In this document: one piece after another, positions 1,180 to 39,206 of the stretch
Layout: each line of letters starts with the position of its first letter
Numbering within the stretch: position 1 is the first letter of the stretch
IMG/VR virus record: IMGVR_UViG_3300032167_000006
Strand: one strand, 5' to 3'
From: a virus
Taxonomy: Duplodnaviria > Caudoviricetes
DNA: 64,000 nt
Notes under the pieces: model-generated
The model's input: the letters and a program-made list of their open reading frames with translations, nothing else
Told to the model about the DNA's origin: nothing
Databases searched by the model: none
Translations under genes and position numbers: made by a program

Positions 1180-1205
1180 TCCCAGGTAGGTGATCCTACC
1201 TGGGA
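1180..1205. terminator. hairpin between convergent genes
   Basis: TCCCAGGTAGG-TGAT-CCTACCTGGGA; includes the helicase stop codon. Confidence 0.75.
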
Positions 1206-2917
1206 ACTATTGTGCACATTACTTTTTTACCATTTATAATATTACTATTATTAAAATATTCAAGGTTTCTAGATGCAAATCCTGATGCATTTGCAAACAT
1301 ATTTTCCACATCATCAGATGGTAATTTAACATCATTAAATTCTACTATTTTACCAACTGCTCCATTACTTGGTGCGGCGCCATTCAATTCTACTTGTTCT
1401 CTCATAGTTATCTTATGAACTGGTACTGGCGAGAAAATATCTTCAACAAATTTAATGGTCTTACTAATATAAGGTAGATAACAAGTATGAAGATCATTAT
1501 TAATATAATATCTACTTTTTACTCGTTGTATACCAAGATATCTATTATTATCTTTATCATATTCTGGAGCTATCAGACAAATCCAGTCACTATTCTCAAG
1601 AATAAGATTAGATTCACCAACATTAGCTCTGCCAATAAGTCTTACTAAATCTGCTTTATTCTTAATACGAGCTTCGTCTACAGAACTTGTTGCTGTTCTA
1701 TTCAACTGAGAAGCTGTGATAACAGGAATATTTTTAAGCGTAGCAAATGTTTTAAATTCATTTATAACTGCACCTAATTGTAATCTTAAATCGCCACCAA
1801 ATGCACCTTCAACTGAACGAATACGTTTCATATAGTCTTGAAGTATACATATAACTTCATATCCTTCATCTTCAAGATCTTCGGTTAATGTATAAAGATA
1901 GCTTGTATCTACAGATAAATTTGGTTTAAATTTAATAATAATATCAATAGGATCATCAGTTGTCATTCTTAAGTTACCTTGATTCTTAAGTATTTCAATT
2001 GCATCTTCCAAAGAATAATTGAGCATACCTGAACCAACACACATGCTAAATAATCTTTCTACAGATTCTTTAACACCATTTTCCATAACAAGCAATACAA
2101 CACATGGTCTTTTTGTTGGATCAGCACATTGATAATTACGATTATATCTTTTAATCTGAATTGCCATATCGAGCAATGTACTAGATTTACCTTCACCAGG
2201 TAATCCTAATATGGTATAAACTCTACCGGCTTCAACACCGCCACCTGTTAATGCATTTAAAGCTTGTACACCAAACTGAAGTTTATTAGATGGTGATGAT
2301 AACTGACGATACGTGTCCGTCATTGCTTCTATAAATGTATCTCCATCTAATGAGAATGTTATATCCTCAGCAGTATCAGCTTTAGATCTACGAAACTTAA
2401 CTTGTAAAGCATTAACCCAATCTTCAATTTCTTTAACAACAGCCCCTCTATTAATATAGTCTGTTGCTTTAAATTTAGTTAATAGAGCTAATCCTTTATC
2501 TATATCATTATATATAATCGCATATTTAAGAGTTTCTGATACTGTATTATTAACCCACTGAACTTCATTATTATTAAGCTCAGAAAGTCCATCTATTTTT
2601 TCACCGCCAAGACCACCTGCGATTTGGCTTAATATCATATTTTTATTATTAAGGTTATGGGTTAATCTAGCATCTATACCTTTCATAATAAAATCTATTC
2701 TTGATAAACGTTCTTGATCACCATTATAATTATCCATATTCATAGTAAGAAACAAGTTTCTCATATTAATAACATTTCCTCTATGAATATTTCTATTTTC
2801 ACTTACTATATAAGCACACATTAAGTCAAGTTCTGTAATATCAAACTTGACATCAATAACAAAATTTTGATTCTTTATAGGTGAACCAGGACCATATCTC
2901 TGCCTTCTATTTTCCAT
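1196..2917 (-). CDS. DnaB-like (SF4) replicative helicase
   Basis: Walker A GLPGEGKS, Walker B ILQDY, ITASQLNR, KSR arginine-finger region. Confidence 0.92.
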   Translation of the reverse strand: MENRRQRYGPGSPIKNQNFVIDVKFDITELDLMCAYIVSENRNIHRGNVINMRNLFLTMNMDNYNGDQERLSRIDFIMKGIDARLTHNLNNKNMILSQIAGGLGGEKIDGLSELNNNEVQWVNNTVSETLKYAIIYNDIDKGLALLTKFKATDYINRGAVVKEIEDWVNALQVKFRRSKADTAEDITFSLDGDTFIEAMTDTYRQLSSPSNKLQFGVQALNALTGGGVEAGRVYTILGLPGEGKSSTLLDMAIQIKRYNRNYQCADPTKRPCVVLLVMENGVKESVERLFSMCVGSGMLNYSLEDAIEILKNQGNLRMTTDDPIDIIIKFKPNLSVDTSYLYTLTEDLEDEGYEVICILQDYMKRIRSVEGAFGGDLRLQLGAVINEFKTFATLKNIPVITASQLNRTATSSVDEARIKNKADLVRLIGRANVGESNLILENSDWICLIAPEYDKDNNRYLGIQRVKSRYYINNDLHTCYLPYISKTIKFVEDIFSPVPVHKITMREQVELNGAAPSNGAVGKIVEFNDVKLPSDDVENMFANASGFASRNLEYFNNSNIINGKKVMCTIVPR

Positions 2918-7823: not shown

Positions 7824-8765
7824 ATGGCAAAAACATACTCTCAAACATACTTATTTGGTCAGTATGGAGAATACGAAAAGAAAATATATGAATTTATTAT
7901 CAATGCGGAACGCATTGATACTAAGAGTGCAGAATTTGATGATATACTTTATGATATTAAACGTAGAAAAATAAGCGACCATTTGGCAAAAATTATAACA
8001 TCTGATAATGTTGTGGTTGCTATAAATCCTACAGGTAGAGCATTGCCTAAAGCATTTAAAGCTTTTGTTGCTGCCGATGTTAAAGATGGTAATAAAGTCA
8101 AAGTATTTATTGATGTTACAGAATGTGTAGTTTATAAAGATGGCGTTTATGTATGTAATAAATTAGATTGGCTTGTAAGTTATGTTATTAATGCTATGAC
8201 AGCGTATATATACGTCAAGGCTGAAAATAAATTATTAGGTAACGCATCAGTTCTTAAAGATGGATGTGATGCATGGGTATCATGCTTCTCTTATATTATA
8301 GATAGAATGTATAAGATTAGCACAGTACCTCAGATTAAGCGTAGAGTTAATTACTTATCTGCTATATATTATCAAACTAATATAATGTGTAAAGATCTTA
8401 AAAAGTTTGAGGATTCTATCAAGGCTAATGCAATTAGAGTTTCAGGTATTGATTCTAAAGATGCTAGAGTTATGGATATGATGATAGAAGAAAAAGACTT
8501 TACAAATATTGATACATTTGTGAAAGCATTAGGTAGAGTAATTAATCTTAAAGATATTAAAACAAGTAATATTGTTTCATACTGGATGAATGCATTTGGA
8601 CCTGGAACAGTATTTGCTTTAGAATATTTCCCTGCATTTTCTATGATGATGACAAATACATATGTTGGAGCATATATTGACCAGCAGATGACAATAGAAA
8701 AAGTAGCAGGGCAATCAATGATTAGATTTTCAAAAACAATTCTTCAGATAGGAGCTAGTGTATAA
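7824..8765 (+). CDS. probable virion structural protein
   Basis: late-type promoter, GGAGG RBS, TAATG coupling to the 1448-aa gene. Confidence 0.5.
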   Translation: MAKTYSQTYLFGQYGEYEKKIYEFIINAERIDTKSAEFDDILYDIKRRKISDHLAKIITSDNVVVAINPTGRALPKAFKAFVAADVKDGNKVKVFIDVTECVVYKDGVYVCNKLDWLVSYVINAMTAYIYVKAENKLLGNASVLKDGCDAWVSCFSYIIDRMYKISTVPQIKRRVNYLSAIYYQTNIMCKDLKKFEDSIKANAIRVSGIDSKDARVMDMMIEEKDFTNIDTFVKALGRVINLKDIKTSNIVSYWMNAFGPGTVFALEYFPAFSMMMTNTYVGAYIDQQMTIEKVAGQSMIRFSKTILQIGASV

Positions 8766-20748: not shown

Positions 20749-22287
20749 GTGTCTATGTATAATCAAAATAAAACGGATTCTGGTGGTCCTAATATACGAC
20801 TGCAGTATCCATATAATGACAAATTTGATTACGAAACATGTTTAGAGAGATTAGATCTTGATAAACAAAGGGAGCAAAATATTAGAACAGGCAGAGGTTT
20901 TATTATTTCGGCTCCTAAAGGTATTAAAAAGGATATCAAGAATCAAGACGGTATATTTTCTAGTCGTTATGGTTCAAATTCAATATCCGATGTAGACTCA
21001 TTTAATGGACGTTATCGTTGTAGGTGCGGTATGAAGAGAGGCTCAATCAACCACGGTGAGCTTTGTGATGCTTGTAATACACGAGTACGTTTTGTGGATG
21101 ACGATGTATCTATTAAAGGATACCTTGTATTAAAAGATAAATATTGGATTATTCATCCTAATATATATCGTTCTCTTGAAGGTTTTATTGGACCTGCAAG
21201 GCTTAATAGAATTATAGAACCTGAAGTTACTGTAGATTCTAATGGTGCTGTTGTAGAAAATACAATAGTAAAGAAAAAAGATGAACCATTTAGAGGTATA
21301 GGTTTAATAGAATTTCATGATAGATTTGATGAAATTATGGATTTCTATCTTACAAGATTTCCTAATAAAAAGCATTTCTATGATGACATAATGAGACACA
21401 AGGATATTGCATTTACCCATACAATCAGTGTGTATTCATCATTGTTAAGACCTTCTCGTTTGGATAATGGTTCTCTTAGATATGAAGCATGTAATGAGCA
21501 GTTTAATATGCTTGCTACATTGGTATATCAAGTTAATAACGATAAGCTTCATATAAATAGAAAAATAAAAGAAAAATATCAGCTTTTATATGATATTCAG
21601 TATCAATTAAATACTGTATACAACGAGCTAAAAGAGATCTTAGCCAAGAAGAAAGGTGACTTAAGAAGCTCTATTGGTGGTAGATATTCATTTAGTTCAA
21701 GATCGGTAATAAGACAAGATCCTTATCTTATGGCGGATCAAATTAAATTACCTTTCCATGGATTATGTGAATTATTACAACAGGTAATAATTAATATCTT
21801 GGTTAAAACTTATAACTTTAGCTATGCTGAAGCTTATAAGAAATGGTATAAAGCTCAGGTTACTGGAAATGATCAGGTTGTCTATGATATCATAGATGGT
21901 TTAATTAAAGATAATCCTGATGGTGGATTACCATTCATTATAAATAGAAATCCTACTATTAACTATGGTGGTATATTAGCTGTAAGATGTATTGGTATTA
22001 ATATGGATTATACTATGAGTATTTCGTTATTGGTACTAAAGAGCCTTGCAGCTGACTTTGATGGTGATACACTTAACATCTTATTCTTATTGAATAAAGA
22101 GTTTATCCAAATGGCAGAGAATATTTTATCACCAAGACAAATGTTTATCAGTAGAAATGACGGAATGTGTAATGGAGATTTCATTCATTCACGTGACGTT
22201 ATAATTAATGCTAACTCTATGAAAAATCTCTATCAGTATAAACCTGATGAGATTGCTAAGATTAAAGCATTACAAGCAATGGATTAA
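20749..22287 (+). CDS. phage multisubunit RNA polymerase beta' N-terminal (catalytic) subunit
   Basis: DGIFS, CRCG...CDAC zinc finger, KKGDLR, SSRSVI, NRNPT, AADFDGD catalytic motif. Confidence 0.95.
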   Translation: MSMYNQNKTDSGGPNIRLQYPYNDKFDYETCLERLDLDKQREQNIRTGRGFIISAPKGIKKDIKNQDGIFSSRYGSNSISDVDSFNGRYRCRCGMKRGSINHGELCDACNTRVRFVDDDVSIKGYLVLKDKYWIIHPNIYRSLEGFIGPARLNRIIEPEVTVDSNGAVVENTIVKKKDEPFRGIGLIEFHDRFDEIMDFYLTRFPNKKHFYDDIMRHKDIAFTHTISVYSSLLRPSRLDNGSLRYEACNEQFNMLATLVYQVNNDKLHINRKIKEKYQLLYDIQYQLNTVYNELKEILAKKKGDLRSSIGGRYSFSSRSVIRQDPYLMADQIKLPFHGLCELLQQVIINILVKTYNFSYAEAYKKWYKAQVTGNDQVVYDIIDGLIKDNPDGGLPFIINRNPTINYGGILAVRCIGINMDYTMSISLLVLKSLAADFDGDTLNILFLLNKEFIQMAENILSPRQMFISRNDGMCNGDFIHSRDVIINANSMKNLYQYKPDEIAKIKALQAMD

Positions 22288-22343: not shown

Positions 22344-23105
22344 ATGAAAAAGAATAAGAAATTAAGCAATGCTGAATTAGATCAACTTATTGAAAATGTA
22401 GTAGACAAACTTGAAAAACAAGATGTTATTTATAAAGATGAAAATGATGTTATTCATCTTGTAGATAAAGATGGTATAAAATATACCAAGATTGATACTG
22501 GCGTAAAACAGGCAAATTCTGTTGGAGAATTTATTAAAATTTTAGAACAGCTTCCGCAAGATGCTGAGTTTGAATTGAATGGCATAGCTAAAGTAAAAAC
22601 ATCTGAAATGGGTTATCCTGAGGGAGATCTAACAATCACACCTATGTATAATGAAGATCTTCCAGAAATTCCTTTTGAAGATTGTGAAGAATGCTGTGGC
22701 GAATGCAAATGTGATGAAGCTGGTGATATAGATCAGTGTGAGAAAGAGTTTGCTGAATATTCAATGAAAAAATATCTCTATGGAGTAAATGAAACTGCGC
22801 CTGAGATTATTCATGGTATGAGACATAGTCCTGTAGATCAAATTATTTATCAAACAAAAGTATGTCATCCTAATGCACTTCAGCTTGATTATGAAGCAAC
22901 AATGCTTGGCAATAATCAGTGTGCTATAATTGATGAAATGAGACATCATAACGCATATGTTGCCGAATGTATTGCTGAGATGACTCGTAGACAAGTATCA
23001 GCACTTCTTGAATATAATACTCAGGCAATGGCTAACTTTGCTGTGGCTACAAAGAAAGATATGTGTGTTATTGTAGATAAAGATACTGACGATTTTGAGG
23101 ATTAA
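22344..23105 (+). CDS. hypothetical protein with a Cys-rich acidic patch
   Basis: 253 aa; CEECCGECKC. Confidence 0.7.
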   Translation: MKKNKKLSNAELDQLIENVVDKLEKQDVIYKDENDVIHLVDKDGIKYTKIDTGVKQANSVGEFIKILEQLPQDAEFELNGIAKVKTSEMGYPEGDLTITPMYNEDLPEIPFEDCEECCGECKCDEAGDIDQCEKEFAEYSMKKYLYGVNETAPEIIHGMRHSPVDQIIYQTKVCHPNALQLDYEATMLGNNQCAIIDEMRHHNAYVAECIAEMTRRQVSALLEYNTQAMANFAVATKKDMCVIVDKDTDDFED

Positions 23106-23109
23106 TAAA

Positions 23110-23358
23110 ATGAATTGTAATTTTCAAATTGGAGATATTGTTGAAGTAGCAGATAAAGTTGATACTGATATAACTACAATCGCAACAATTAAAATTATAG
23201 AACCAGATGCAGATTTACCAAATGTATTTTGGTTATATCTTTTAGCAAATGAGGAAGTTCTTAATACTAATATGCATCCTGTTGTTGGATACTATTGGGA
23301 TATAATTGCTAGCGATAGTGAATATATTAGACTTCTTAGCAGAGCTACAATATCATAA
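23110..23358 (+). CDS. hypothetical protein (SH3/KOW-like start)
   Basis: FQIGDIVEV; GAGGA RBS. Confidence 0.6.
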   Translation: MNCNFQIGDIVEVADKVDTDITTIATIKIIEPDADLPNVFWLYLLANEEVLNTNMHPVVGYYWDIIASDSEYIRLLSRATIS

Positions 23359-23377: not shown

Positions 23378-23400
23378 AGAGGGAGGATTAACCTCCCTCT
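23378..23400 (+). terminator. intrinsic terminator
   Basis: AGAGGGAGG-ATTAA-CCTCCCTCT + T run. Confidence 0.82.
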
Positions 23401-23429
23401 TTTATTTTTTATTAAATTATATAATAAAT

Positions 23430-23440
23430 GTATATTATAT
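23430..23440 (+). promoter_or_regulatory. putative early-type promoter
   Basis: GTATATTATAT upstream of the RNase H operon. Confidence 0.45.
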
Positions 23441-23469
23441 AAATATAATAAAAGGAGGTGAAAATATTT

Positions 23470-24135
23470 ATGAGTAACGTATTAGAAATTTGTACAGATG
23501 CAAGTATACGCACATTTCCTAATGGTAGAACATTTGGATGTGCTGGAGCTTTATGCATCACTACAATGGAACAAGATTATTTAGTATCGCAAGATACAAC
23601 CAATAATAGATCTGAGCTCTTAGGAGTATATTTAGGTCTTAAATTGGGAAAACGTATTATGGATGAAAATCCTAATTACAAAAGTATGATTATTTATTCA
23701 GACAGTCAGTTTGCAATATTTGGATTGACAAAATGGATGGCTGGATGGATGAAATCAAAAGATACTAACGGAATAATTTATGGTTCTAATGGTAAACCTG
23801 TAAAGAACCAAGAGTTATTTATGTGTATCTTATCATTTATTACATCTAATCAAATTAAAGTTACATTTAGACATTGTTCTGGCCACGTTAGATACACCAG
23901 TACTAAGATGCTCAGACAAGCAAACGATGTTTATTATAGGTCTAATGGAGAATATCTACGTCCAGAAGATATTTTTAAATTAGCATATTATAATGACATT
24001 GTAGATACTACAACTAGAGAATATTTACAAACTATCAATCCTGATATATATCCAAAAATGGATTATTCAAATAATTATCAGATGATGGCAAAATATGTAG
24101 TTCCAAATAATTATACGAACTTTATAGGAGATTAA
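23470..24135 (+). CDS. ribonuclease HI
   Basis: TDAS, TNNRSEL, YSDSQF, VKNQEL, HCSGH, NDIVD. Confidence 0.9.
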   Translation: MSNVLEICTDASIRTFPNGRTFGCAGALCITTMEQDYLVSQDTTNNRSELLGVYLGLKLGKRIMDENPNYKSMIIYSDSQFAIFGLTKWMAGWMKSKDTNGIIYGSNGKPVKNQELFMCILSFITSNQIKVTFRHCSGHVRYTSTKMLRQANDVYYRSNGEYLRPEDIFKLAYYNDIVDTTTREYLQTINPDIYPKMDYSNNYQMMAKYVVPNNYTNFIGD

Positions 24136-25164
24136 ATGATGTATGAGAATATGCAAGGGATGATTCAAAATGGTGGATTTGGAACTTCTGGTCCAATGAA
24201 CTTTCAAGGATTTAACCCCTATCAAAACAATATGATACCATTTGGAAACTATAATCAACCATCGGTACAACAGCCGTATCAGTATTATAATAATCCATAT
24301 GGAAATCAACAACCACAAAATAATGGACTGGTATTTCAACCAGTCGGAGGTTATCAACAACCAAAAAATAATTACAATTATTATAATCCTTATGGAAATA
24401 CATTTACTCCAACACCATACGGTTATAATTCATATGGTAATGCTTATAGCTATAATTATTATAATGGATATAGACCATATGCATCACCTGTTGCAATGCA
24501 ACAATATCAAAATCAACAAATAGAATTGTTTAAAATGAAATATCGTTTAGCAAATCATTATGTTGGAAATGAGATTAATGAAGATTATCTTGATAAATTA
24601 TGTAACCCTAATAATCAAATATATCAGAAATCTCAAGAACAAATAGCTGCAGAAGAAGAGCATAGATTTATGCAATATGTTTCTAATGTAGCATGTGGAA
24701 TAATACAAGTTCCAAAATCTAATATACAACGTGAAGCAGATATGTTGAATCTAATGTCTTATAATTTACATCAAGCATTAGATAATCATTCATTATGTGA
24801 ATTTTTAGAAGATGATCTTTGGAAGTTACAAAGAGAATTTTGGATTAGGGATAATCTTAAATTAAATGGTAATAGAGATCTTTCAACCACATATAATAGT
24901 AGTGATTATAATGAACTATTAAGGCTACACAATAGCTCTACAAGTCCATATGTAAGCGATTTACTTAATAATTCAAGATATGATAATAATCTTGACGATA
25001 TAGAAATCGGTATGAAAATGGCATTTGATAGAGAACGAAGAAGGAAAGCAATATTAGAAGGTAAAGTTCCTGATTTCATTTCGTCGGACGAAACACAAAA
25101 ACGTCGACATGAATGGACGCAGCAACTAATGAATCAAATTTATAGAAAAGGAGGAGGCGTATAA
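24136..25164 (+). CDS. protein with N-terminal Q/N/Y/G/P low-complexity (prion-like) domain
   Basis: first ~128 aa almost uncharged, with repeated (Y)NPYGN-like units; predicted helical C-terminal part. Confidence 0.8.
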   Translation: MMYENMQGMIQNGGFGTSGPMNFQGFNPYQNNMIPFGNYNQPSVQQPYQYYNNPYGNQQPQNNGLVFQPVGGYQQPKNNYNYYNPYGNTFTPTPYGYNSYGNAYSYNYYNGYRPYASPVAMQQYQNQQIELFKMKYRLANHYVGNEINEDYLDKLCNPNNQIYQKSQEQIAAEEEHRFMQYVSNVACGIIQVPKSNIQREADMLNLMSYNLHQALDNHSLCEFLEDDLWKLQREFWIRDNLKLNGNRDLSTTYNSSDYNELLRLHNSSTSPYVSDLLNNSRYDNNLDDIEIGMKMAFDRERRRKAILEGKVPDFISSDETQKRRHEWTQQLMNQIYRKGGGV

Positions 25165-26924
25165 TGTCTAGGGTATCTTTAATTGAACAACTCTATGCTC
25201 CTAAGAAGAAAAGTGCCCTGGAATTTGATTATGATAAATTATGGGCACCACCCATAAGATTCTTTTTATCGCAGCAGGATATTAATGAATTATATAAAAT
25301 TGCTACTTCATTAAAATATAATGATAATATTGAAAAGAAGTACGAACTCATAGATGCAGTCATGAGGCCTCGTGGATTTAAACGTGGTAATTGCGGCACT
25401 AATAGAGTAGTTTATAATTTCTTAGAAGACACATCATTTTGTATGAAGATTGCACTTGATCGTGTAGGTATTAAAGATTCTCCAAGAGAATTTAAAAATC
25501 AAGAATTCTTTAAACCGTTTTGTTGCAAGATATTTGAAGTGGATCCAACTGGAGTTATAGCATGTGTAGAGCGTGTTAATCCAATATCCTCATTAGAGGA
25601 ATTTATATCTGTTGCAGATGATATATTTAATATGATGGTAACTAAAATCATTGGAAAATATGTTGTAGATGATTTAGGTACTGAAAAGTTTATGAATTAC
25701 GGAACTCGTTATAATGCTAATGGTACAGCATTTGGTCCCGTAGTTTTAGATTATCCGTATGCTTATGAATTAGACGGAGCTAAACTCCATTGTGCAAAGC
25801 CTGTTCTGATTGGAGATAAAGAATTTGCTTGTAATGGAGAAATTGATTATGATGCTGGCTTAAACAATCTAGTATGCAGTAAATGTGGACGAACTTATAG
25901 CGCTAGAGAGCTAGCAAGAGATGATTCAAATGTACTAAAATTCTATTCAGATGAAGATCGTGGTAGACTTAGGGCAAGAATCGTGAGAGAAGATGGAACG
26001 ATTATAAAAGATAGTGGTCGTTCATCAAAAACATACATTACTAAAGAAGAATATGAGGAGGGCATTAGAATGTTCGAATTAAAAGACTTAGGTCCACGTC
26101 CGGTAGAAAAAACAATTAAAAATAAATATGTCCCGATGAAGAAACTTAGGGAACAATATCATTCAGAACTTCAACTTAAAGCTTATGAGGAAATGCAAAA
26201 AAGAAATGCAGAACCTTTTAATCCTGCAATGAAATCTGAATTTAGTCCTAGACCAGCAAAAAGAGCTGGTAAAAATGAATCTAAAGATAATACAATCATT
26301 GCAGATCCTATAGTAGCAACTGAAGAAAGAATTCAAAATGTTACAATAGCAGCAAGAGCAGAAGATGCTATCAATGAACAGGAATCTGAAATTGTAAAAG
26401 AAACAACTTTTGAAGAGGCTTTAGCTGAAGCTTTAGAAGCAGAACCTGATACGGTCGATGAAGATATGCCTTTAGAAGAAGCTATAAATAAAGCTTTAGA
26501 GGAAGCTGAAGACGATGATTCTGAAGATGAAGAGGGTACTGAGTATTATGAAGAGAATGATACTGTTGAAAATTCTGATGAGGAATCAGAAGAAGAGGAA
26601 GATGAAGAAACTGTTTCAGAAGATGAAGAATTTGAATCAAATAATTCAGATGAACAGAAAGGATTTGATGAAGAAATGGAAGCAGAAGTATTTCCTGAAA
26701 TGAATAATGATAATATTATAGTTGGAGTAGACTTATCTAATGATGAGGAAGATTATTCTAATTATATTCCGCCTGAAGAAGAAGATGAAGAAGACTTTGA
26801 GGATGATGAAGACGATGAGTATTCTGAACTGTATGCATTTGATCGTAAAGCACAAAAACGCGACAATAAAAAACAGCAGAATAAATCCAAAAAGTTTAAT
26901 AGTGGAGATATGAGCGATTATTAA
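25164..26924 (+). CDS. protein-kinase-like fold protein with Zn ribbon and long acidic tail
   Basis: GNCGTNRVVY Gly loop, CMKIA Lys, PREF Glu, DDLG..FMNYG catalytic loop, VLDY; C...C...CSKC; D/E-rich C-terminus. Confidence 0.72.
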   Translation: MSRVSLIEQLYAPKKKSALEFDYDKLWAPPIRFFLSQQDINELYKIATSLKYNDNIEKKYELIDAVMRPRGFKRGNCGTNRVVYNFLEDTSFCMKIALDRVGIKDSPREFKNQEFFKPFCCKIFEVDPTGVIACVERVNPISSLEEFISVADDIFNMMVTKIIGKYVVDDLGTEKFMNYGTRYNANGTAFGPVVLDYPYAYELDGAKLHCAKPVLIGDKEFACNGEIDYDAGLNNLVCSKCGRTYSARELARDDSNVLKFYSDEDRGRLRARIVREDGTIIKDSGRSSKTYITKEEYEEGIRMFELKDLGPRPVEKTIKNKYVPMKKLREQYHSELQLKAYEEMQKRNAEPFNPAMKSEFSPRPAKRAGKNESKDNTIIADPIVATEERIQNVTIAARAEDAINEQESEIVKETTFEEALAEALEAEPDTVDEDMPLEEAINKALEEAEDDDSEDEEGTEYYEENDTVENSDEESEEEEDEETVSEDEEFESNNSDEQKGFDEEMEAEVFPEMNNDNIIVGVDLSNDEEDYSNYIPPEEEDEEDFEDDEDDEYSELYAFDRKAQKRDNKKQQNKSKKFNSGDMSDY

Positions 26925-26947
26925 TTATTTATTGGAGGTGAATAGAT

Positions 26948-27595
26948 ATGTTTAATAATCATGCAATGTCTGTAGTTACAGACTTACGAATGTTAGGGCC
27001 TGAAATAAATAATAAAGATTTTATAGCTATTGCAGCGATTACAACAAATGATTATCCTAAATTGCCTAATATATATAATGCAAGCATATTAATTCCACCT
27101 ACTGAAATTCTTATGCGTTGGGCAGATGGAGATCCGTATGTACTTCAAGCAAACTATCCTAATTATCTTAGAACTCAGACTCCTGATGATATGATAGTAG
27201 CATTAATTGCTCTTCTTACTCAAAAGAATGTGATATTATACATACCTGGAGATGAGTTTAATATATTTGGTCAAATGTTATTAGATCATATATATTTCAA
27301 TTATGGTATTATATGTAATACCCCAACAACGCAATTTGCAATGGATCAAGCAAAGATACCATTTTTACTTTCTAGATTCTATATGATTGATGCTATGAAT
27401 CCAGAAGATTATCTTTCAGCATATCCAGCAAATGCATTATTACCAGAGTTTGTTATAAATAAGCTTGCTGAAGAAATGAAACCGTTCCAACAACCTGTAT
27501 CATTCCAACAGTATGCAGAATATTTTAACAAACTAAATGCTGCCAAAGGAACAACCATTGCCCATCCAGAGATGGTTAAGGTGGTGGAAAAATGA
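26948..27595 (+). CDS. hypothetical protein, possible DUF488-like fold
   Basis: LIPPTEILMRW..D...Y..YL...KNVILY pattern. Confidence 0.45.
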   Translation: MFNNHAMSVVTDLRMLGPEINNKDFIAIAAITTNDYPKLPNIYNASILIPPTEILMRWADGDPYVLQANYPNYLRTQTPDDMIVALIALLTQKNVILYIPGDEFNIFGQMLLDHIYFNYGIICNTPTTQFAMDQAKIPFLLSRFYMIDAMNPEDYLSAYPANALLPEFVINKLAEEMKPFQQPVSFQQYAEYFNKLNAAKGTTIAHPEMVKVVEK

Positions 27596-28119
27596 TAGCA
27601 TTTATGGATGATCCTAAGTATGCAGAATTAATCCGCTATAAATTTCCAGGAAGAGAGCCAGTTATATTAAATCTCTCTTCTTATTATAGCGGTCATATAA
27701 ATATTGCTCATTTGATTACAAAGATCTCACCAATTAATAATACAGGTATGATGATGCCCGATTTTGTTAATTCTGTGGATTTTGATATTCAATATGCTTC
27801 GGCTGTATTAAATAATCCAGAGTTATTTGGATCTTTAATTAATATCATGCTTAGAGCTTATGAAGGATATTTAGTATGTATTCTGGTGCAAAGGGATCCA
27901 TATAGAGATGCCGTTATGGAATCTTTAATTAAATTAATCCAGCAAAGATACGGATATAATTGTTGGATTATTGAAGATGCTGATGATATTGAAGTGATAT
28001 CCGAACAAATGATGTTCCCTAACGGGCTTATTACGTTAGATGAGGATATTAAACAATACAATCAGATGTATTCTAAAGGTTTGGTAGGCAGTATACTGCC
28101 AAATATAAATCTTGAATAA
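27592..28119 (+). CDS. hypothetical protein, possible DUF488-like paralogue of the upstream gene
   Basis: ISP...DFDIQY..VL...GYLVCIL...LI...YG; ATGA overlap with the upstream gene. Confidence 0.45.
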   Translation: MIAFMDDPKYAELIRYKFPGREPVILNLSSYYSGHINIAHLITKISPINNTGMMMPDFVNSVDFDIQYASAVLNNPELFGSLINIMLRAYEGYLVCILVQRDPYRDAVMESLIKLIQQRYGYNCWIIEDADDIEVISEQMMFPNGLITLDEDIKQYNQMYSKGLVGSILPNINLE

Positions 28120-28124
28120 TTTTA

Positions 28125-28150
28125 TAGGAGAGCCATAATAGGCTCTCCTA
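28125..28150 (+). terminator. hairpin closing the RNase H operon
   Basis: TAGGAGAGCC-ATAATA-GGCTCTCCTA. Confidence 0.72.
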
Positions 28151-30729: not shown

Positions 30730-31530
30730 ATGTTATGGGATAAAGTTAATTATACAGCAGATATATCATATTTAACTAATATCTTCATTACTGAGTATGA
30801 TATATCAAAATGCAACATAAATGTTTTATATACTAAAGGTATTATAGATAAATCTACTTATGATTATCTTTATAAAGCCGAACGTATGGTAAGACAGACA
30901 TTTGTTGGTAAATTACAGAAGGATAATCCTAAGATTGCTAGAGCATTAAAAGATGGTATTATCGAAGCCAAGAAAATATTATTTGAAGCAAATGGTATTG
31001 AAGATAGAGATGTATTAAGTATCAAAAATGATGCTGTATTTCTAATCAATAAGAAACCAAAAATAACTAAATTTGGTTTAATAGAGTTTTTACCTAAAGG
31101 ATTGTATACTTCATTCTTTAAATTTAGAGGTATTGAAGTATATTATTACTATAATAATGTGAATAAGATGGAATATATCGAAGTTAAAGGTATATCTGAA
31201 GAAAACCTAGCTAAGCATGAAGGATACTTTTTACAACTTCTTAAAGATGTATTTTATTCTATTCAAATTAATGGACCTGAAATATCACTTAGAATGATAA
31301 AAGATTTCTATATGGATTATATAACTAAAAAACTTCCTATAGAATATTATAGAAAGTTTGATACAGGTTCTAATTATCATTATATTTGTAATACAATGAT
31401 CAATACAGGTTTTGAAGCAGAGTATGTGTCAGAACAATATAAAGATGTGATTGATATATCTTATAATTTAGATATATTAACACAATTACAAAGATACGTA
31501 GTTTCTATGTACTTTAATAAAAACAGATAA
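30730..31530 (+). CDS. stand-alone divergent family-B-like polymerase palm protein
   Basis: motif A-like ITEYDISKCN, motif C-like LSIKNDAVF, EVKGI; no exonuclease domain. Confidence 0.5.
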   Translation: MLWDKVNYTADISYLTNIFITEYDISKCNINVLYTKGIIDKSTYDYLYKAERMVRQTFVGKLQKDNPKIARALKDGIIEAKKILFEANGIEDRDVLSIKNDAVFLINKKPKITKFGLIEFLPKGLYTSFFKFRGIEVYYYYNNVNKMEYIEVKGISEENLAKHEGYFLQLLKDVFYSIQINGPEISLRMIKDFYMDYITKKLPIEYYRKFDTGSNYHYICNTMINTGFEAEYVSEQYKDVIDISYNLDILTQLQRYVVSMYFNKNR

Positions 31531-33356: not shown

Positions 33357-36300
33357 ATGATATTCCCTGAGAAGACTATTACAGATAATCCATTTGTGGA
33401 TAATATATTGTATTATAGTAAACTCATAGCTCTTAATTGTACAATTAAAGATGAACAAGAAGCTTTATCTCAGGAAACGCCAGAAAGTTTAAGACGAAGA
33501 GAACTTCTAATAAGTTCTATAGAAAAAACTTCTACGTATGAGGTTTATGAATCGATTCCTGAAGAAATTCTTGAAAAATATGTTACTCCTGTAAGTAATA
33601 TTGATATATATGCTAATAGCTTAGGCTCGTTACAAACATATATGAATTCATATAAAGTCAATGAGAGGAATGATATATTATCAAGGTTAAGCAATTTAGC
33701 AGCTAATATATATGCATCTCATTATGATATAATGATGAATCATTTATCTGAAATTGGCGATACTTGGATTGACGATAATAAAGAATTATTTGATAATTGT
33801 GTGAATGGTACTGCTAATTATAATAACTTATTCAAAGTAATACCATTTAAAACTAGATGTAATATTATTGGCACTTATATAAATAATTACGATAATACCA
33901 ATATAGAAGATATTGCTAATGATTTATATTCATTTGAAGTTTATATTAATAATAGAAGCGATTCTTATATAAATGGTGAATTAAATAAAATCAGTAAAGC
34001 AATGAGAGATGTGTTTATTGGTCATTATACAATAATGAAGGATAGAGGATATCTTGAAAATGCTGTATCTGATTGGATACATTTCTTTGATGATGAAAAT
34101 GCATATAAAAAGGCTATGAATGGAACAGCTACATATATGGATATGTATATGCTATTTCCAAATTATGCTATAATAGAATCTTTACTTGCTGTATTTGATG
34201 AAGATACTATACAAAATAACGGATTAGATAGAGATCCGGAATTATTAGATAATTATATTAAAAATATAGATCCAAATGGAGCTGTTAATGCATATAAACT
34301 TAATAAAGTTATGTCGGATAGATATTTAGAAAATTATAATATTTATCTAAATAGCATTTTATATTCAAAATGCTTAAATGGTACTACTGATTTTTATGAG
34401 CTTTATGATCATTTACCATTAGAGACTAGAAAAATAATACTCTCATCTATATTTGAAGAAAAAACAAATCTTCAAGAATATGCTGATTCTAAGAAATTAT
34501 TTAATGCATATCTTAATACTCTTAATAGAGAAGAGAGAAATCGTATAAAAACGGCTATCACTGTTGATATGCAGAATTATTACCCTTCGCATCATGAAGA
34601 GCTTAATAATTATTATCGTACATTAATCGGACTTCCTCCATTAGATGATAATGGTAAAGTTATGGAAGATACATTAAAAAGTACATATGATGCTGAACAT
34701 GATCAGAATATTTCGCTTACTCATAAAAAATTTATTGATCGACTTCCAGAAGGAGTATATCCAGAATCACACTGGAACCAAGAAATATATAAATTTGATG
34801 CATATGACATAGGTATATTAAATCAATATGGAATACTTGAAGACTGGCTAGTTGCATGTGGTTCAGATCTTAATAATCCGAGATATAAATATTTAAGATA
34901 TCTTGGAGACGAAAAATTAGATTTATATACTTGCAGTAAAGCTATGAACTTTCAGCTTATTGGTATCCCGACAATAGATGATTCTGAATTTAAGCGTAAA
35001 TTTACAGATACATATGTTGTAAATAGAGATTATATTATTAGAGCTGTATATTCAGAAGCACATAAATTCCAATCTGATTATTATGATAAATTTATTATAA
35101 TATTTATACTTATAAATACTATAATGGACTGTCTTACTGGCATCACTGATCATATAATCAATAGAGAAGTATTTGATTCTCGTTGTATTAAATATTTATT
35201 TGAATCTTATGGAATTCCGTTTTATTCTGAAATACCTATAAAATATCAAAAAGCAATGTTAAAGAATCTTAATACTTTAATTAAGTTTAAATCAAGTACA
35301 AGAAACATGGTTGATATTTGTTCCTTATTTGGTTTTTCTGATGTAAGAGTATTTGGATATTATTTATTCAAACAGCGTTTGATAGATGATTCTACTGGAG
35401 AGTATAATTTAAAAGATAATATATATTATGATATATCTCAATTGTACGTTCGCCATGTAAATGGTGATGAAGTAGATTATAATGGAGTTAGATATTATAA
35501 TTTACCTAAATATTTGAAATTATATCCCGTAGATGAAAATAAATATACAAAAACTATTAGTGTAGAATCAGAAAAAGATCCTGTAAGAATTTTAAATAAT
35601 GATAGTATAAAGAATGTATATATACGTGAAAAAAGTGAAGATGATAAAGGTAATGATATATACGAATTTATACCTTTTAAAGATTCAAGCTATTTCACAC
35701 AAATAAATGCTAATACTGCACCTGCAGAACTTAAATTTATAAAAGTTCCAATCGATGAGAACTTATCAGCATATAAGAATGATCCTGATTATATTGTGCC
35801 ATATGATGAAGTAGTATATCAGGATGAGGGAAATACTTGGCATGGCGGTGAAGATTATAATGTATTATATAATAAATTACTTGACCATGAATTTAATGCC
35901 GTTAAAACCAAGTATATATCAGTAGAAACAGTTACAGATATGACAGAATTATCATTCCAAGTTTCATATTTTTACAATATGCTATTTGATAATATGTATT
36001 CTGAAGATAATCTTACTGTAGAAATACCTCATATTAAAATAGGTCATAAATTTAGATTTATGGATGTAGTATGTTATTTATTCTCTTTAATGTATTTATA
36101 TAATGGATTAGAGGATAATATAATGTATTCTCCTACACAAATGCTTTATATTAAAGGATACGATTTTAATAATGATACAAATACTGTATTAAAAAATATA
36201 TTTAATTATGCACAGAAAAACCCTGTTACAGATGAGGATATAGAAAACTATAAGCGTGAATTTAATATAAATGAAAGAATATCTGAAGATGGATATGATT

Positions 36301-39206
36301 ATCGTAAAGCATTCGAGCATTGTAATATGAAAGCGTTTAATCTGGAATGCGATGTTGATAGATTAGAGACTTGGCTAAACAATAATTTCCAGATGTCTCT
36401 TGATGATTTTGTAGTACAAGATAATCCAGATCCAATGCAAGATATAACACTTAGAAGCTTTTTCTCACTTAATAACTCGTATTATCAAAAGAGTCTTTTC
36501 ACTAGCGATAACTTATACCCTGTTCAATCTAATCAAAATATTAAATATGCTTTTGGATATGAATTATTAAAAAAGACTCCTATAGAAGATATTAATGATA
36601 ATAAACATGAATATTTAGATAATAATACTGAAGTAATTACTGATTCTTCAGATACTATATATATTATGGATCATACCAAATATATTAGTAATAATAAGGG
36701 AGATTATGCTATATATTATAAATATAATCGTCAAGATGATGCATTTGAAAAATTTAATAATACAATTTATCATACAAATAAAGTATCTGGAGGATTGTAT
36801 AATAGGCTTTTCAATGGTAAGATAGCAATAGCAGATAAAAATGATAATTATATTTTTGCAGCAGATGCTTATTTCATTAAAAAAGATAAAATATATGATG
36901 AAATCATTGATGAAGAATATTTTAGAGAAGATAATAATAAGCTTAGTGATTACGATAAGATATTTAAATTTGGCGAATATTATATTTATAAAGATGGTAA
37001 ATGGGTTCTTGATGATGAAAATTGTTATGTGAAAATAACCCAAGGTACTGATGTAATTTATGATTTATTAAAAAATGCCGATAATTATGAAAATATTCTT
37101 GTTTTAGATGATGATAGTTATGTAAAAGATATAGATGGTCATTTTATAAGACTATCAGAAACAGATTTTTATAAAAAGAAAGAATCTGGTGAAGATTATA
37201 ATGGCTATGTATATACAGAAGAAGATTGCTATATTAAATCTGCAAATAATAAGAAAACAGAATTTTTCGATCCAACAGTAAAACCTAGAGTGTATTATGA
37301 AAAACTTAGTGATTATTATAATAGGACTAATTATATTATATCTGATACATATTATATATTAAATAGTAATGGTGAATATGTAGCTCAATCTAATTTAATC
37401 GATCCAAATAATTGCTATTATAAAGATGAAAATAATGAATATCATCTTGTTATAGAATCATTATCAACAGTAAAAGAATATGATGCAGATAAATATAAAA
37501 CAATTAGTTCTTTATTTATATTACAAAGCGATAATGATTATGTAGAATATACCAAAGATGGTGATATATATCTTAAGAAATTTGATATAAATAAAAGATA
37601 TGTATATAATTCTGATTTTGAATATATTACCGTATTAAATAAGAACGATACCTATGATTCAAATAATATTATGGTAGTAATTTTTAATAAAGAACTTACT
37701 TCATATAAAGAAGATAATATAATAAACACTTCATATGATCCAGAAAAATCGGACGGCGTATGGGATGAGAATGATTGGTATTATTCTGATGATTATTTAG
37801 GTGAACATTCATGGTATTATAAAAATCCAAATGGAACCACTGTAGAACCAGAGGAAGAGGAAGAAAAAGATGCTGTAGGTTCTGGATTCTATATAAAGGC
37901 ATCATCATATTTAGATGAAAATATTAAATTAATAGAAGGAAATAAATATTATTTATCTCTAGATATTAAAACTAATTTTACTGGAACCATTCAAATCGCA
38001 TGTGTAGCAGATAATACAGTATGTGATGGTAAAGGATTATTTATCAATAGCCAAGCTAGAATATATTCTGTTAAGAAAGATGAAGAACAACATATTGATC
38101 AAATATTTATAGCTAATGATATAGAACAACCTAGATTAGTATTCTTAATTTATGATTATGAAGATAATCCTATTAATTTTGGTGATTTAATCGAAATTGG
38201 TAATATTAGATTCGTTGAATCTTATAATAATAATTATATAGCTCAGGATATTCCTTCTTATGATAGATTACAAGAGCTATATAGAACAAATGAATCTATA
38301 TATAAATACCTTATTACTCTTATGGCTAATACAGATGATTTACGTACTTATAATATTTATAAGCATATATATGATTCTATGATGACTGCTAAATATAATA
38401 AAGAAGCATTTAAACTAGAAGAAGGTAGGTATGCAAAAACATATACTGATTTCTTAGAAACAAGAGATGCTGTATTATATGAAAAACTTTGCTATTTTAA
38501 ATCACTCGACCCAGATGCATTGCGTAAGCAAGTTGCTGATAATATAGTTGAAGTTTCATATGCTATTGATGACTGTATTGATACATATTCATATGGTTAT
38601 CTTTATTCATATTTCCCTGCGGTATCTGCATCATATATTCAGCAGTATATTATTAAGATTATTAACTTCTTTAAATCATGGAAAGTACATCTTTTAGGTA
38701 TTAATACTGTATATAAATTTGATGATAAATTAGAGAATACTATAAAAATTCTTGAACGTCATCAAGAGCGTATAAGAATTGATGATGCTAAGGGTAATGT
38801 ATTTATTTATGGTGGAGTTAAGATTAATCCTATGGATTCTATAACCATGAATGAAAATGGAGAAAAAGTATCGTATTCAGAGTTATTCCCTGATTTTGTT
38901 GAGCATTCACATAAATTAAATGATCATTATACTATACATGATAGAGTTAGAATTATATCTTCCACTGCAAATGGATTTGATCATTTCTATGATAGTGATA
39001 ATGAATTAATGCTTAGATTGAATAATATAGAAACTAAGGTTTCTATTGATGAAAATAATAATCTTGTAATTAATTCAGATAAGTATAGTATTTCAGTTGA
39101 AGATAAGAATAAAGCTATATTGACAACTGATGAAAGTGATCATGAAGTATTTGGAATACAACGTATTGGTGAAATAAATTCTAATACAATTGATTTAACT
39201 AATTAA
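33357..39206 (+). CDS. very large virion protein, probable baseplate wedge
   Basis: 1949 aa; YLFESYGIPF...LKNLNTLIKFKSSTRNMVDICSLFG resembles the P2 gpI/T4 gp7-type wedge core; late-type promoter. Confidence 0.65.
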   Translation: MIFPEKTITDNPFVDNILYYSKLIALNCTIKDEQEALSQETPESLRRRELLISSIEKTSTYEVYESIPEEILEKYVTPVSNIDIYANSLGSLQTYMNSYKVNERNDILSRLSNLAANIYASHYDIMMNHLSEIGDTWIDDNKELFDNCVNGTANYNNLFKVIPFKTRCNIIGTYINNYDNTNIEDIANDLYSFEVYINNRSDSYINGELNKISKAMRDVFIGHYTIMKDRGYLENAVSDWIHFFDDENAYKKAMNGTATYMDMYMLFPNYAIIESLLAVFDEDTIQNNGLDRDPELLDNYIKNIDPNGAVNAYKLNKVMSDRYLENYNIYLNSILYSKCLNGTTDFYELYDHLPLETRKIILSSIFEEKTNLQEYADSKKLFNAYLNTLNREERNRIKTAITVDMQNYYPSHHEELNNYYRTLIGLPPLDDNGKVMEDTLKSTYDAEHDQNISLTHKKFIDRLPEGVYPESHWNQEIYKFDAYDIGILNQYGILEDWLVACGSDLNNPRYKYLRYLGDEKLDLYTCSKAMNFQLIGIPTIDDSEFKRKFTDTYVVNRDYIIRAVYSEAHKFQSDYYDKFIIIFILINTIMDCLTGITDHIINREVFDSRCIKYLFESYGIPFYSEIPIKYQKAMLKNLNTLIKFKSSTRNMVDICSLFGFSDVRVFGYYLFKQRLIDDSTGEYNLKDNIYYDISQLYVRHVNGDEVDYNGVRYYNLPKYLKLYPVDENKYTKTISVESEKDPVRILNNDSIKNVYIREKSEDDKGNDIYEFIPFKDSSYFTQINANTAPAELKFIKVPIDENLSAYKNDPDYIVPYDEVVYQDEGNTWHGGEDYNVLYNKLLDHEFNAVKTKYISVETVTDMTELSFQVSYFYNMLFDNMYSEDNLTVEIPHIKIGHKFRFMDVVCYLFSLMYLYNGLEDNIMYSPTQMLYIKGYDFNNDTNTVLKNIFNYAQKNPVTDEDIENYKREFNINERISEDGYDYRKAFEHCNMKAFNLECDVDRLETWLNNNFQMSLDDFVVQDNPDPMQDITLRSFFSLNNSYYQKSLFTSDNLYPVQSNQNIKYAFGYELLKKTPIEDINDNKHEYLDNNTEVITDSSDTIYIMDHTKYISNNKGDYAIYYKYNRQDDAFEKFNNTIYHTNKVSGGLYNRLFNGKIAIADKNDNYIFAADAYFIKKDKIYDEIIDEEYFREDNNKLSDYDKIFKFGEYYIYKDGKWVLDDENCYVKITQGTDVIYDLLKNADNYENILVLDDDSYVKDIDGHFIRLSETDFYKKKESGEDYNGYVYTEEDCYIKSANNKKTEFFDPTVKPRVYYEKLSDYYNRTNYIISDTYYILNSNGEYVAQSNLIDPNNCYYKDENNEYHLVIESLSTVKEYDADKYKTISSLFILQSDNDYVEYTKDGDIYLKKFDINKRYVYNSDFEYITVLNKNDTYDSNNIMVVIFNKELTSYKEDNIINTSYDPEKSDGVWDENDWYYSDDYLGEHSWYYKNPNGTTVEPEEEEEKDAVGSGFYIKASSYLDENIKLIEGNKYYLSLDIKTNFTGTIQIACVADNTVCDGKGLFINSQARIYSVKKDEEQHIDQIFIANDIEQPRLVFLIYDYEDNPINFGDLIEIGNIRFVESYNNNYIAQDIPSYDRLQELYRTNESIYKYLITLMANTDDLRTYNIYKHIYDSMMTAKYNKEAFKLEEGRYAKTYTDFLETRDAVLYEKLCYFKSLDPDALRKQVADNIVEVSYAIDDCIDTYSYGYLYSYFPAVSASYIQQYIIKIINFFKSWKVHLLGINTVYKFDDKLENTIKILERHQERIRIDDAKGNVFIYGGVKINPMDSITMNENGEKVSYSELFPDFVEHSHKLNDHYTIHDRVRIISSTANGFDHFYDSDNELMLRLNNIETKVSIDENNNLVINSDKYSISVEDKNKAILTTDESDHEVFGIQRIGEINSNTIDLTN

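Follow-up and report, generated by a model that had tools for sequence, protein, structure and literature searches.

Organization of the locus

We analysed a 64,000-nucleotide stretch of DNA (hereafter the window) from the virus record IMGVR_UViG_3300032167_000006, which is 258,973 bp long, is judged 96% complete, has a GC content of ~28% and carries split multisubunit RNA polymerase (RNAP) genes. The subject of this work is a run of five genes, g1–g5, lying between positions 23378 and 28150 and encoding an RNase H1, a protein with a low-complexity head, a kinase-like protein with a long acidic tail, and two related alpha/beta proteins. Across related loci, g2–g5 and a further gene for a 266-amino-acid (266-aa) protein were found to form a constant block, which may represent an early, non-virion core module of a large lineage of jumbo phages. 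The beta' N-terminal gene of the phage's polymerase (20749–22287) is nearest, at ~30% identity, to those of Yersinia phage phiR1-37, Bacillus phages BpSp, AR9 and PBS1, and Staphylococcus jumbo phages, and the phage is therefore regarded as an uncultured, distant member of the AR9-like group. The features of the locus are as follows.

23378–23400, plus strand: terminator-like hairpin closing the upstream unit (9-bp stem with 6 GC pairs, then the T-run TTTTATTTTTT)
23426–23438, plus strand: early-type promoter motif AAATGTATATTAT, with 12 of 13 bases as in the AR9 early consensus AAATATATATTAT
23470–24135 (alternative GTG start at 23458), plus strand: g1, RNase H1 (PF00075, phrog_531)
24136–25164, plus strand: g2, 342 aa, low-complexity head and charged C-terminal domain (from composition and synteny)
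25164–26924, plus strand: g3, 586 aa, predicted minimal kinase-like core, four-Cys ribbon and acidic tail (from an AlphaFold2 (AF2) model, Foldseek and VIA-wide)
26948–27595, plus strand: g4, 215-aa alpha/beta protein, paralog of g5 (from hhalign and a hidden Markov model (HMM))
27592–28119, plus strand: g5, 175-aa predicted alpha/beta protein (AF2 model; invariant motif ES-x-x-K-x-IQQ-x-YG)
28125–28150, plus strand: terminator-like hairpin closing the unit (10-bp stem with 6 GC pairs)
30730–31530, plus strand: 266-aa gene of the AR9 g239/phiR1-37 g276 family, outside the five-gene unit (phrog_21037; synteny)

The five genes are tightly coupled. The stop codon of g1 (24133–24135) is followed directly by the ATG of g2 at 24136, g2 and g3 overlap in a TAATG (25162–25166), g4 and g5 overlap in an ATGA (27592–27595), and the 23-nucleotide (nt) spacer between g3 and g4 contains the ribosome-binding site GGAGGTG. 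For g1, the ATG at 23470 behind an AGGAGG (23454–23459) is the more likely start judging by the sequence, rather than the GTG at 23458. Terminator-like sites are common here, with 18 in a 12-kb region against 2.8 expected from shuffles. A first-pass annotation of this DNA had described one unit of five coupled genes bounded by hairpins at 23378 and 28125 and headed by a single early-type motif at 23430; the hairpins, the couplings and the motif are all present, and the arrangement supports one predicted transcription unit in this phage.

Conservation across related phages

We collected 45 loci from viral metagenome contigs (up to 249 kb) by means of a g3 search and a g5 profile search. The g5-seeded set used for synteny held 37 loci, 23 of them distinct, with identities down to ~27%; these loci are related to one another. 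Genes g2, g3, g4 and g5 were adjacent, not scattered, in every one of the 23 distinct loci, and g3, g4, g5 and the 266-aa gene followed the same order in 37 of 37. The 266-aa gene abuts or overlaps g5 in most distant relatives, with five other genes standing between them in the window. The constant block is g2-g3-g4-g5 plus the 266-aa gene.

The RNase H1 has a different standing. Its identity is clear, with matches to PF00075 (4e-15, 56.7 bits against a cutoff of 25.8) and phrog_531 (9e-22) and with catalytic residues D14, E53, D82, H143 and D183 at least 95% conserved among 20 orthologs, but its position directly beside g2 is confined to the window and its closer kin, and elsewhere 0.5–3.5 kb of other genes intervene. 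RNase H1 is a loose neighbour that joined the operon front in this phage and its close kin, not a fixed member of the module. Accordingly, the first-pass grouping of all five genes between 23378 and 28150 holds across the clade for g2–g5 and fails for the RNase H as a constant member, and the conserved block reaches beyond it to 30730–31530. The role in handling RNA:DNA hybrids suggested in that annotation is weakened because the attachment of the RNase H to the module is loose.

The 266-aa protein matches phrog_21037 (7e-36), as does AR9 g239 (3e-127), and tblastn found homologs in AR9, PBS1 and jumbo phages of Staphylococcus, Listeria, Fusobacterium and Yersinia. By these matches, the protein is the product of a core gene of AR9-like phages (g239 in AR9, g276 in phiR1-37). 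It carries the motifs YDISKxNINVL and SIKNDA, which are reminiscent of motifs A and C of polymerases.

A kinase-like fold in g3

The first-pass annotation had read kinase-fold motifs, a Zn ribbon and a D/E-rich tail in g3, and each of these was recovered. The protein is laid out as N-terminal helices with a core at residues ~30–205 (25251–25778), a four-Cys ribbon at 206–256 (25779–25931) and a tail at 257–586 (25932–26921). The AF2 model, built from a 14-sequence alignment, has a mean predicted local distance difference test score (pLDDT) of 62 and of ~80 in the core. It places strands at 72–77, 81–86 and 92–97, a helix at 100–115, strands at 124–126 and 132–136, and a helix at 144–162, giving the predicted kinase fold of two lobes, the N-lobe with five strands and helix C, the C-lobe helical and catalytic. 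The best Foldseek matches were NleH2, OspG, NleH1 and archaeal Rio2 (E 2e-4 to 9e-4, probability ~1.0), and in VIA-wide nearly all of the 50 top matches were kinase-like (APH, RIOK3, OspG, POMK, HopBF1, Rio1, Bud32; Z 4.6–6.8).

Five residues expected of a kinase active site, K95, E109, D170, N178 and D196, do not vary across the 14 sequences, whose identity goes down to 39%. The third strand carries K95 and the helix after it E109, as expected of the Lys-Glu pair of the kinase superfamily; D170 and N178 come after a strand at 166–169, and D196 precedes another at 199–203. We call g3 kinase-like because the list of structural matches is uniform and the motif positions fit; the Z values by themselves are middling. 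No family model accompanies the fold. A search of NCBIfam at E up to 1 returned no kinase family, and g3 falls outside the RIO (PF01163), Pkinase (PF00069) and Bud32 models; a PDB profile search gave nothing below E 2, and phrog_4301, a family of unknown function, matches weakly (1.4e-5). Among 650 relatives (90% clustering) none is named beyond "hypothetical protein"; two carry PF05593, and there is no informative Pfam domain. Taken together, sequence and model make g3 a new sequence family inside a predicted kinase-like fold.

Outside the core, C210, C223, C238 and C241 are invariant in a ribbon-like insert. The tail, of ~330 residues, has a net charge of -62. Among 24 sequences, 23 have a net acidic tail; its length runs from 230 to 533 residues, and little of it can be aligned. 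In the near relatives (L012, L014, L017 and L018), as at 26850–26921 of the window, the tail has a basic patch and then a conserved terminal GDMS[DEQ]Y (DDWSEY in L014). More distant orthologs have other C-terminal endings, and the terminal peptide may be a docking motif.

In one relative (L052, 1403–3910), g3 is broken by a 276-aa HNH-like open reading frame (ORF) inserted after the catalytic loop and before the LDYP metal-binding motif, and g3 is also split in two more loci (L037 and L038). Either an intron or a free-standing homing endonuclease could account for the HNH-like ORF. Insertions of this type typically home into conserved sequence of important genes, and we count the insertion site in L052 as a sign of functional constraint on g3.

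The low-complexity protein g2

Residues 1–132 of g2 (24136–24531) are 70% Q/N/Y/G/P, 17% Tyr and 3% D/E/K/R, in agreement with the nearly uncharged N-terminus reported at first pass, and the remainder (residues ~133–342), a charged C-terminal domain, is 28% charged. The head, long, Q/N/Y/G-rich and of very low charge, has the composition of the prion-like domain class. A Q/N/Y/G/P-rich, low-charge stretch is present in the gene 5' of the kinase in 23 of the 23 distinct loci and has the top score of its locus each time. Conversely, among 289 ORFs of at least 150 residues from these loci, 24 reach a Q/N/Y/G/P fraction of at least 0.5 in a 100-residue window, and 23 of the 24 are the gene in the g2 position. 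The g2 profile recognises the gene before g3 in part of the loci only. The composition of the head thus appears to have been kept while its sequence drifted, which suggests selection on regional composition.

No match to g2 was found in Pfam, PHROG or NCBIfam, and the PDB profile search gave chance-level matches only. The 77 relatives of its C-terminal domain are all named "hypothetical protein" at most, and the model of g2 in the ESM Atlas is poor (pLDDT 0.43). Within the first 40 residues, g2 (24136–24200 of the window) and its orthologs carry the motifs FYTGE or SPxVQ, followed by GFG; these may form a binding site that lies inside the disordered region.

The g4–g5 pair

Comparison of g4 and g5 profiles by hhalign, with 24 sequences each, gave a probability of 90% (E 1.5e-6 over 92 columns), a relation that was doubtful with six sequences, and the g4 HMM matches a g5 ortholog at 7e-9. 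By these comparisons, g4 and g5 are true, ancient paralogs, so that the two were rightly treated as a related pair in the first-pass annotation. Its label "DUF488-like" does not stand: neither protein matches any Pfam model, DUF488 included, even at E 10, nor any PHROG or NCBIfam family, and PDB profile searches with both gave only chance-level matches. No entry titled DUF488 is among the Foldseek and VIA matches listed for the g5 model, an absence from a list that leaves the fold itself possible.

The AF2 model of g5 (pLDDT 89.7, predicted TM-score 0.85) is a three-layer alpha/beta domain. Structure searches with it returned generic folds, namely N-domains of tetrapyrrole methylases and P-loop kinases (thymidylate, APS and polynucleotide), with Foldseek E values of at least 0.017 and VIA Z of at most 6.5; the Foldseek matches are at chance level, with root-mean-square deviations of 14–17 A. 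In a viral structure library, g5 matches only uncharacterised metagenomic myovirus proteins, including an adjacent pair that resembles the g4/g5 duo. The ESM Atlas holds no model for g4. The g5 family comprises 548 clusters at 50% identity; the relatives are named "hypothetical protein" at most and have no informative Pfam domain, and the best 150 matches listed are all stand-alone proteins of 106–193 residues. We considered g5 as a degenerate guanylate or thymidylate kinase and rejected this on the weak fold matches, on the lack of a P-loop and on the non-homology of AR9 g238. The Walker A motif (G-x4-G-K-[ST]) is absent from g5, the loop after strand 1 being variable (FMDDPKY, YGGGMYI and others) among 24 orthologs.

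Promoters and predicted expression class

The promoters of AR9 have been defined as AAATATATATTAT-N6-G for early genes and AACA-N6-TA/G for late genes (PMC5312081). As a loose pattern, the early consensus is not enriched in the AT-rich window (66 matches against 65 expected); only the placement of a motif with respect to genes carries information. A separate spacer precedes g2 in distant relatives. Of 19 distant loci, 11 have TATATTAT in the 80 nt before the start of their g2 ortholog, compared with 2.4% of background windows (p ~1e-13, a value that overstates independence, the loci being related).

The late-type motif [AG]ACA-N6-TA is absent upstream of g1. By comparison, [AG]ACA(T)-N6-TA lies 35–51 nt before the start codons of ~20 genes of the window, mostly virion genes; the set includes the genes at 7824, 15821, 29145, 33357, 42429, 43497, 49516, 50331, 51543 and 58458, of which those at 7824, 33357, 43497 and 58458 are virion genes. 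This placement suggests that the promoter code of the AR9 non-virion RNAP is conserved in this distant phage. In AR9, g239 (the homolog of the 266-aa gene) and g241 (RNase H) both lie downstream of annotated early promoters. By analogy with AR9, we infer early expression of g1–g5, driven by the virion RNAP. Since the early-type motif is present and the late motif absent, the module would have a non-structural role, and its products are probably not virion components.

Relation to cultured phages and known systems

A tblastn search with g2, g3, g4 and g5 against 50,697 phage records returned no match, and a DNA search returned only low-complexity matches in the acidic tail of g3. Profiles of g2–g5 found nothing in phiR1-37 or AR9, either in the whole records or in the local neighbourhoods, and profile-profile comparison likewise found nothing. 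As far as sequence comparison reaches, g1 and the 266-aa protein alone have homologs in cultured jumbo phages, and cultured AR9-like phages share these two with the phage studied here but have no detectable g2–g5. Several candidates at comparable places were set aside: the phiR1-37 virion proteins g270–g272 are of similar size to g2–g5 but not homologous to them; AR9 g226 (an RNAP specificity subunit) and g225 (a primase) are unrelated to any member; and AR9 g227 reaches an hhalign probability of only 13% with g3, without PHROG backing. In AR9 (L053, AR9 204647–206003), a genuine P-loop guanylate kinase, g238, stands directly before g239, in the slot that g5 has here; no homology between g238 and g5 was detected.

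The closest structural likeness of g3 is to minimal and atypical kinases. NleH1/2, OspG, RIO1/RIO2 and Bud32/PRPK similarly have a small kinase fold without an activation segment or large C-lobe, and Lys, Glu and two Asp at the expected places. Unlike these proteins, g3 has a unique glycine loop (GTNR), a wider spacing in the catalytic loop, no family-model match, an appended four-Cys ribbon and acidic tail, and a phage origin. Rio2 and Bud32 act as ATP-driven switches inside complexes, a mode that would suit g3, which is always accompanied by fixed partners. Among viral kinases, phage T7 gp0.7 and poxvirus B1 (VRK-like) are made early, and B1 is required for the DNA factories that its virus, replicating outside a nucleus, sets up in the cytoplasm; neither has a detectable sequence relation to g3, and neither is known to have a conserved low-complexity partner gene or an alpha/beta paralog pair.

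The head of g2 is comparable with the prion-like domains of the FUS/Sup35 type and with RNA polymerase II's C-terminal domain (CTD), which are likewise Y/Q/N/G/P-containing, almost uncharged and linked to kinases, g2 in that a kinase gene lies next to it. CTD and FUS condensation is described as driven by tyrosine-based multivalency (PMC10519987). In contrast to the CTD and FUS, the g2 head has no heptad-like repeat, is only 7% Ser/Thr and belongs to a prokaryotic virus.

The phage studied here shares with chimallin-nucleus phages its jumbo size and two multisubunit RNA polymerases, but g2–g5 bear no resemblance to shell proteins. A search of the 96%-complete genome with the chimallin phiKZ gp054 gave no match at E up to 1, in a single-sequence search that a very distant homolog could escape; as a control, the phiKZ DNA polymerase, of comparable divergence, matched its homolog outside the window at 7e-9. 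AR9-like phages sit outside Chimalliviridae, the chimallin-bearing family (PMC13282480, a 2026 review). That review is silent on kinases, condensates and prion-like proteins, and neither a protein kinase nor a low-complexity partner of the g2/g3 kind is mentioned in a comparative survey covering 224 jumbo phages (PMC7824862). Within the literature searched, the g2–g5 module is undescribed.

Neighbouring genes

RNase H1 has been reported as universal in group 1 jumbo phages, which are without a recognisable primase (PMC7824862). Just 5' of the operon (23095–23358), an 87-aa protein containing GDIVEV, kept in one relative (L001), may correspond to the small SH3-fold protein reported by Iyer et al. 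in the vicinity of the group 1 jumbo-phage DNA polymerase (PMC7824862). The DnaB-like helicase (1196–2917, minus strand) terminates in KVMCTIV, and a 253-aa protein (22344–23105, plus strand) has KDMCVIV near its C-terminus; both are strict copies of a tag shared in this genome, [KRI][EVD]M[CV]x[IKV]V. The similar HAMSVVT of g4 was considered as a docking tag of this kind and rejected, as it aligns to the first strand of the fold in all orthologs.

Proposed function and alternatives

We tentatively favour, as a possible account, an early, non-virion core module of a large uncultured AR9-like jumbo lineage in which chimallin was not found, with g3 working on or with g2 in the early machinery. 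Under this account, g3 would use ATP, whether for kinase activity or, in the manner of Rio2 or Bud32, to drive a switch, and its target or partner would be g2, its constant neighbour. The two disordered regions, the g2 head and the g3 tail, would give multivalent, adjustable contacts, through which part of the early intracellular replication or transcription machinery would be assembled; g4 and g5 would probably pair with each other.

Several observations weigh against this account. For g3 as an enzyme, a Pfam search at E up to 0.1 returned no kinase model, the VIA Z scores of 5–6.8 fall in a range that the tool calls common, the D170–N178 spacing is 8 residues and not the canonical 5 (D-x4-N), and the model is of moderate quality (mean pLDDT 62), with residues 172–192 beside the active site below 50. 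For g2 as its target, the disordered region has only 7% Ser+Thr and so presents no obvious substrate for a Ser/Thr kinase. For early timing, the promoter class is carried over from AR9, a distant relative, by means of a pattern that is not enriched when used loosely and of counts from loci that are not independent. Finally, constant adjacency can mirror a conserved genome backbone and not a functional complex.

The rival that survives best, although we consider it unlikely, is a host-takeover kinase comparable with T7 gp0.7: g3 would phosphorylate host RNA polymerase, RNases, or translation or defence factors, its tail would act as a nucleic-acid mimic gripping host DNA- or RNA-binding proteins, and g2, g4 and g5 would be separate early proteins or specificity factors. 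The early-type promoter motif, the intact kinase motifs and the polyacidic tail (net -62) fit such a role, as do NleH and OspG among the nearest structures, these being minimal kinases that pathogens aim at host targets. However, takeover and counter-defence genes are usually variable, whereas this block is fixed in order and content over a very broad clade; the kinase was never found without the same three partners, and the conserved composition of the adjoining g2 is left unexplained.

A more specific version of the g2–g3 partnership would have the two proteins form an early, ATP-tuned condensate, a viroplasm-like replication and transcription body serving as a protein-phase alternative to the chimallin shell, with g4/g5 and the g239-family protein as clients or regulators. 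The first-pass annotation had put forward an idea of this kind, a protein compartment that might shield phage DNA, and the observations are compatible with it. We think this rather improbable; the fit is circumstantial, in that both disordered compositions are kept, an early-type motif is present and no chimallin was detected.

It is similarly improbable that the synteny reflects the genome backbone alone, with g2–g5 being neighbours through a conserved core of unrelated early functions. The RNase H, the RNAP beta' gene, the 266-aa gene and a giant virion protein do keep their order over the clade, and module members were not seen fused to one another: longer or fused forms of the 266-aa gene were not found, and the best 150 g5 relatives listed all stand alone. 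Yet other genes are gained and lost to either side of the block and in the interval from RNase H to g2, never inside g2–g5, this phage and related ones have overlapping start and stop codons, and in distant relatives the promoter motif stands directly before g2.

A pathway acting on small molecules, nucleotides or DNA modification, in which g3 would be of the APH type, g4/g5 degenerate nucleotide-kinase-like binders and the 266-aa protein a nucleotidyl-transfer enzyme, appears a little more doubtful still. APH(2'') is the top VIA match of g3 (Z 6.8), with several further APHs behind it, the weak fold matches of g5 are thymidylate, APS and polynucleotide kinases, AR9 has its true guanylate kinase just before g239, and the nucleotide-metabolism genes NrdD and DHFR are near the module. 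Against this, g4 and g5 have no P-loop, the fold matches of g5 are at chance level, AR9 g238 is not homologous to g5, and the disordered head of g2 and the acidic tail of g3 would have no role. Very improbable, and the least likely rival because of the promoter evidence, is a set of virion or assembly proteins (disordered acidic scaffold or internal head proteins with a co-packaged kinase): a giant structural protein (33357–39206, phrog_20751) lies 5 kb downstream and the phiR1-37 genes after the beta' N gene encode virion proteins of similar sizes, but those proteins are not homologous to g2–g5, the operon has no late-type promoter such as the virion genes of the window have, and in AR9 the homolog of the 266-aa protein belongs to an early operon.

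Significance

On this evidence, g2–g5 appear to be a real, clade-wide early module made up of a virus-encoded atypical kinase, a conserved low-complexity partner and a novel paralog pair, for which we infer a function only. Jumbo phages with their own RNA polymerases and without a chimallin shell are common in gut and rumen metagenomes, and the block is a fixed core feature of such phages, with four central proteins that have no described relative. Should g2 and g3 not cooperate, g3 would still be a new phage branch of the kinase-like superfamily. If they do cooperate, this would be the first phage case of a kinase-linked low-complexity assembly, and an entry point to the early cell biology of jumbo phages.

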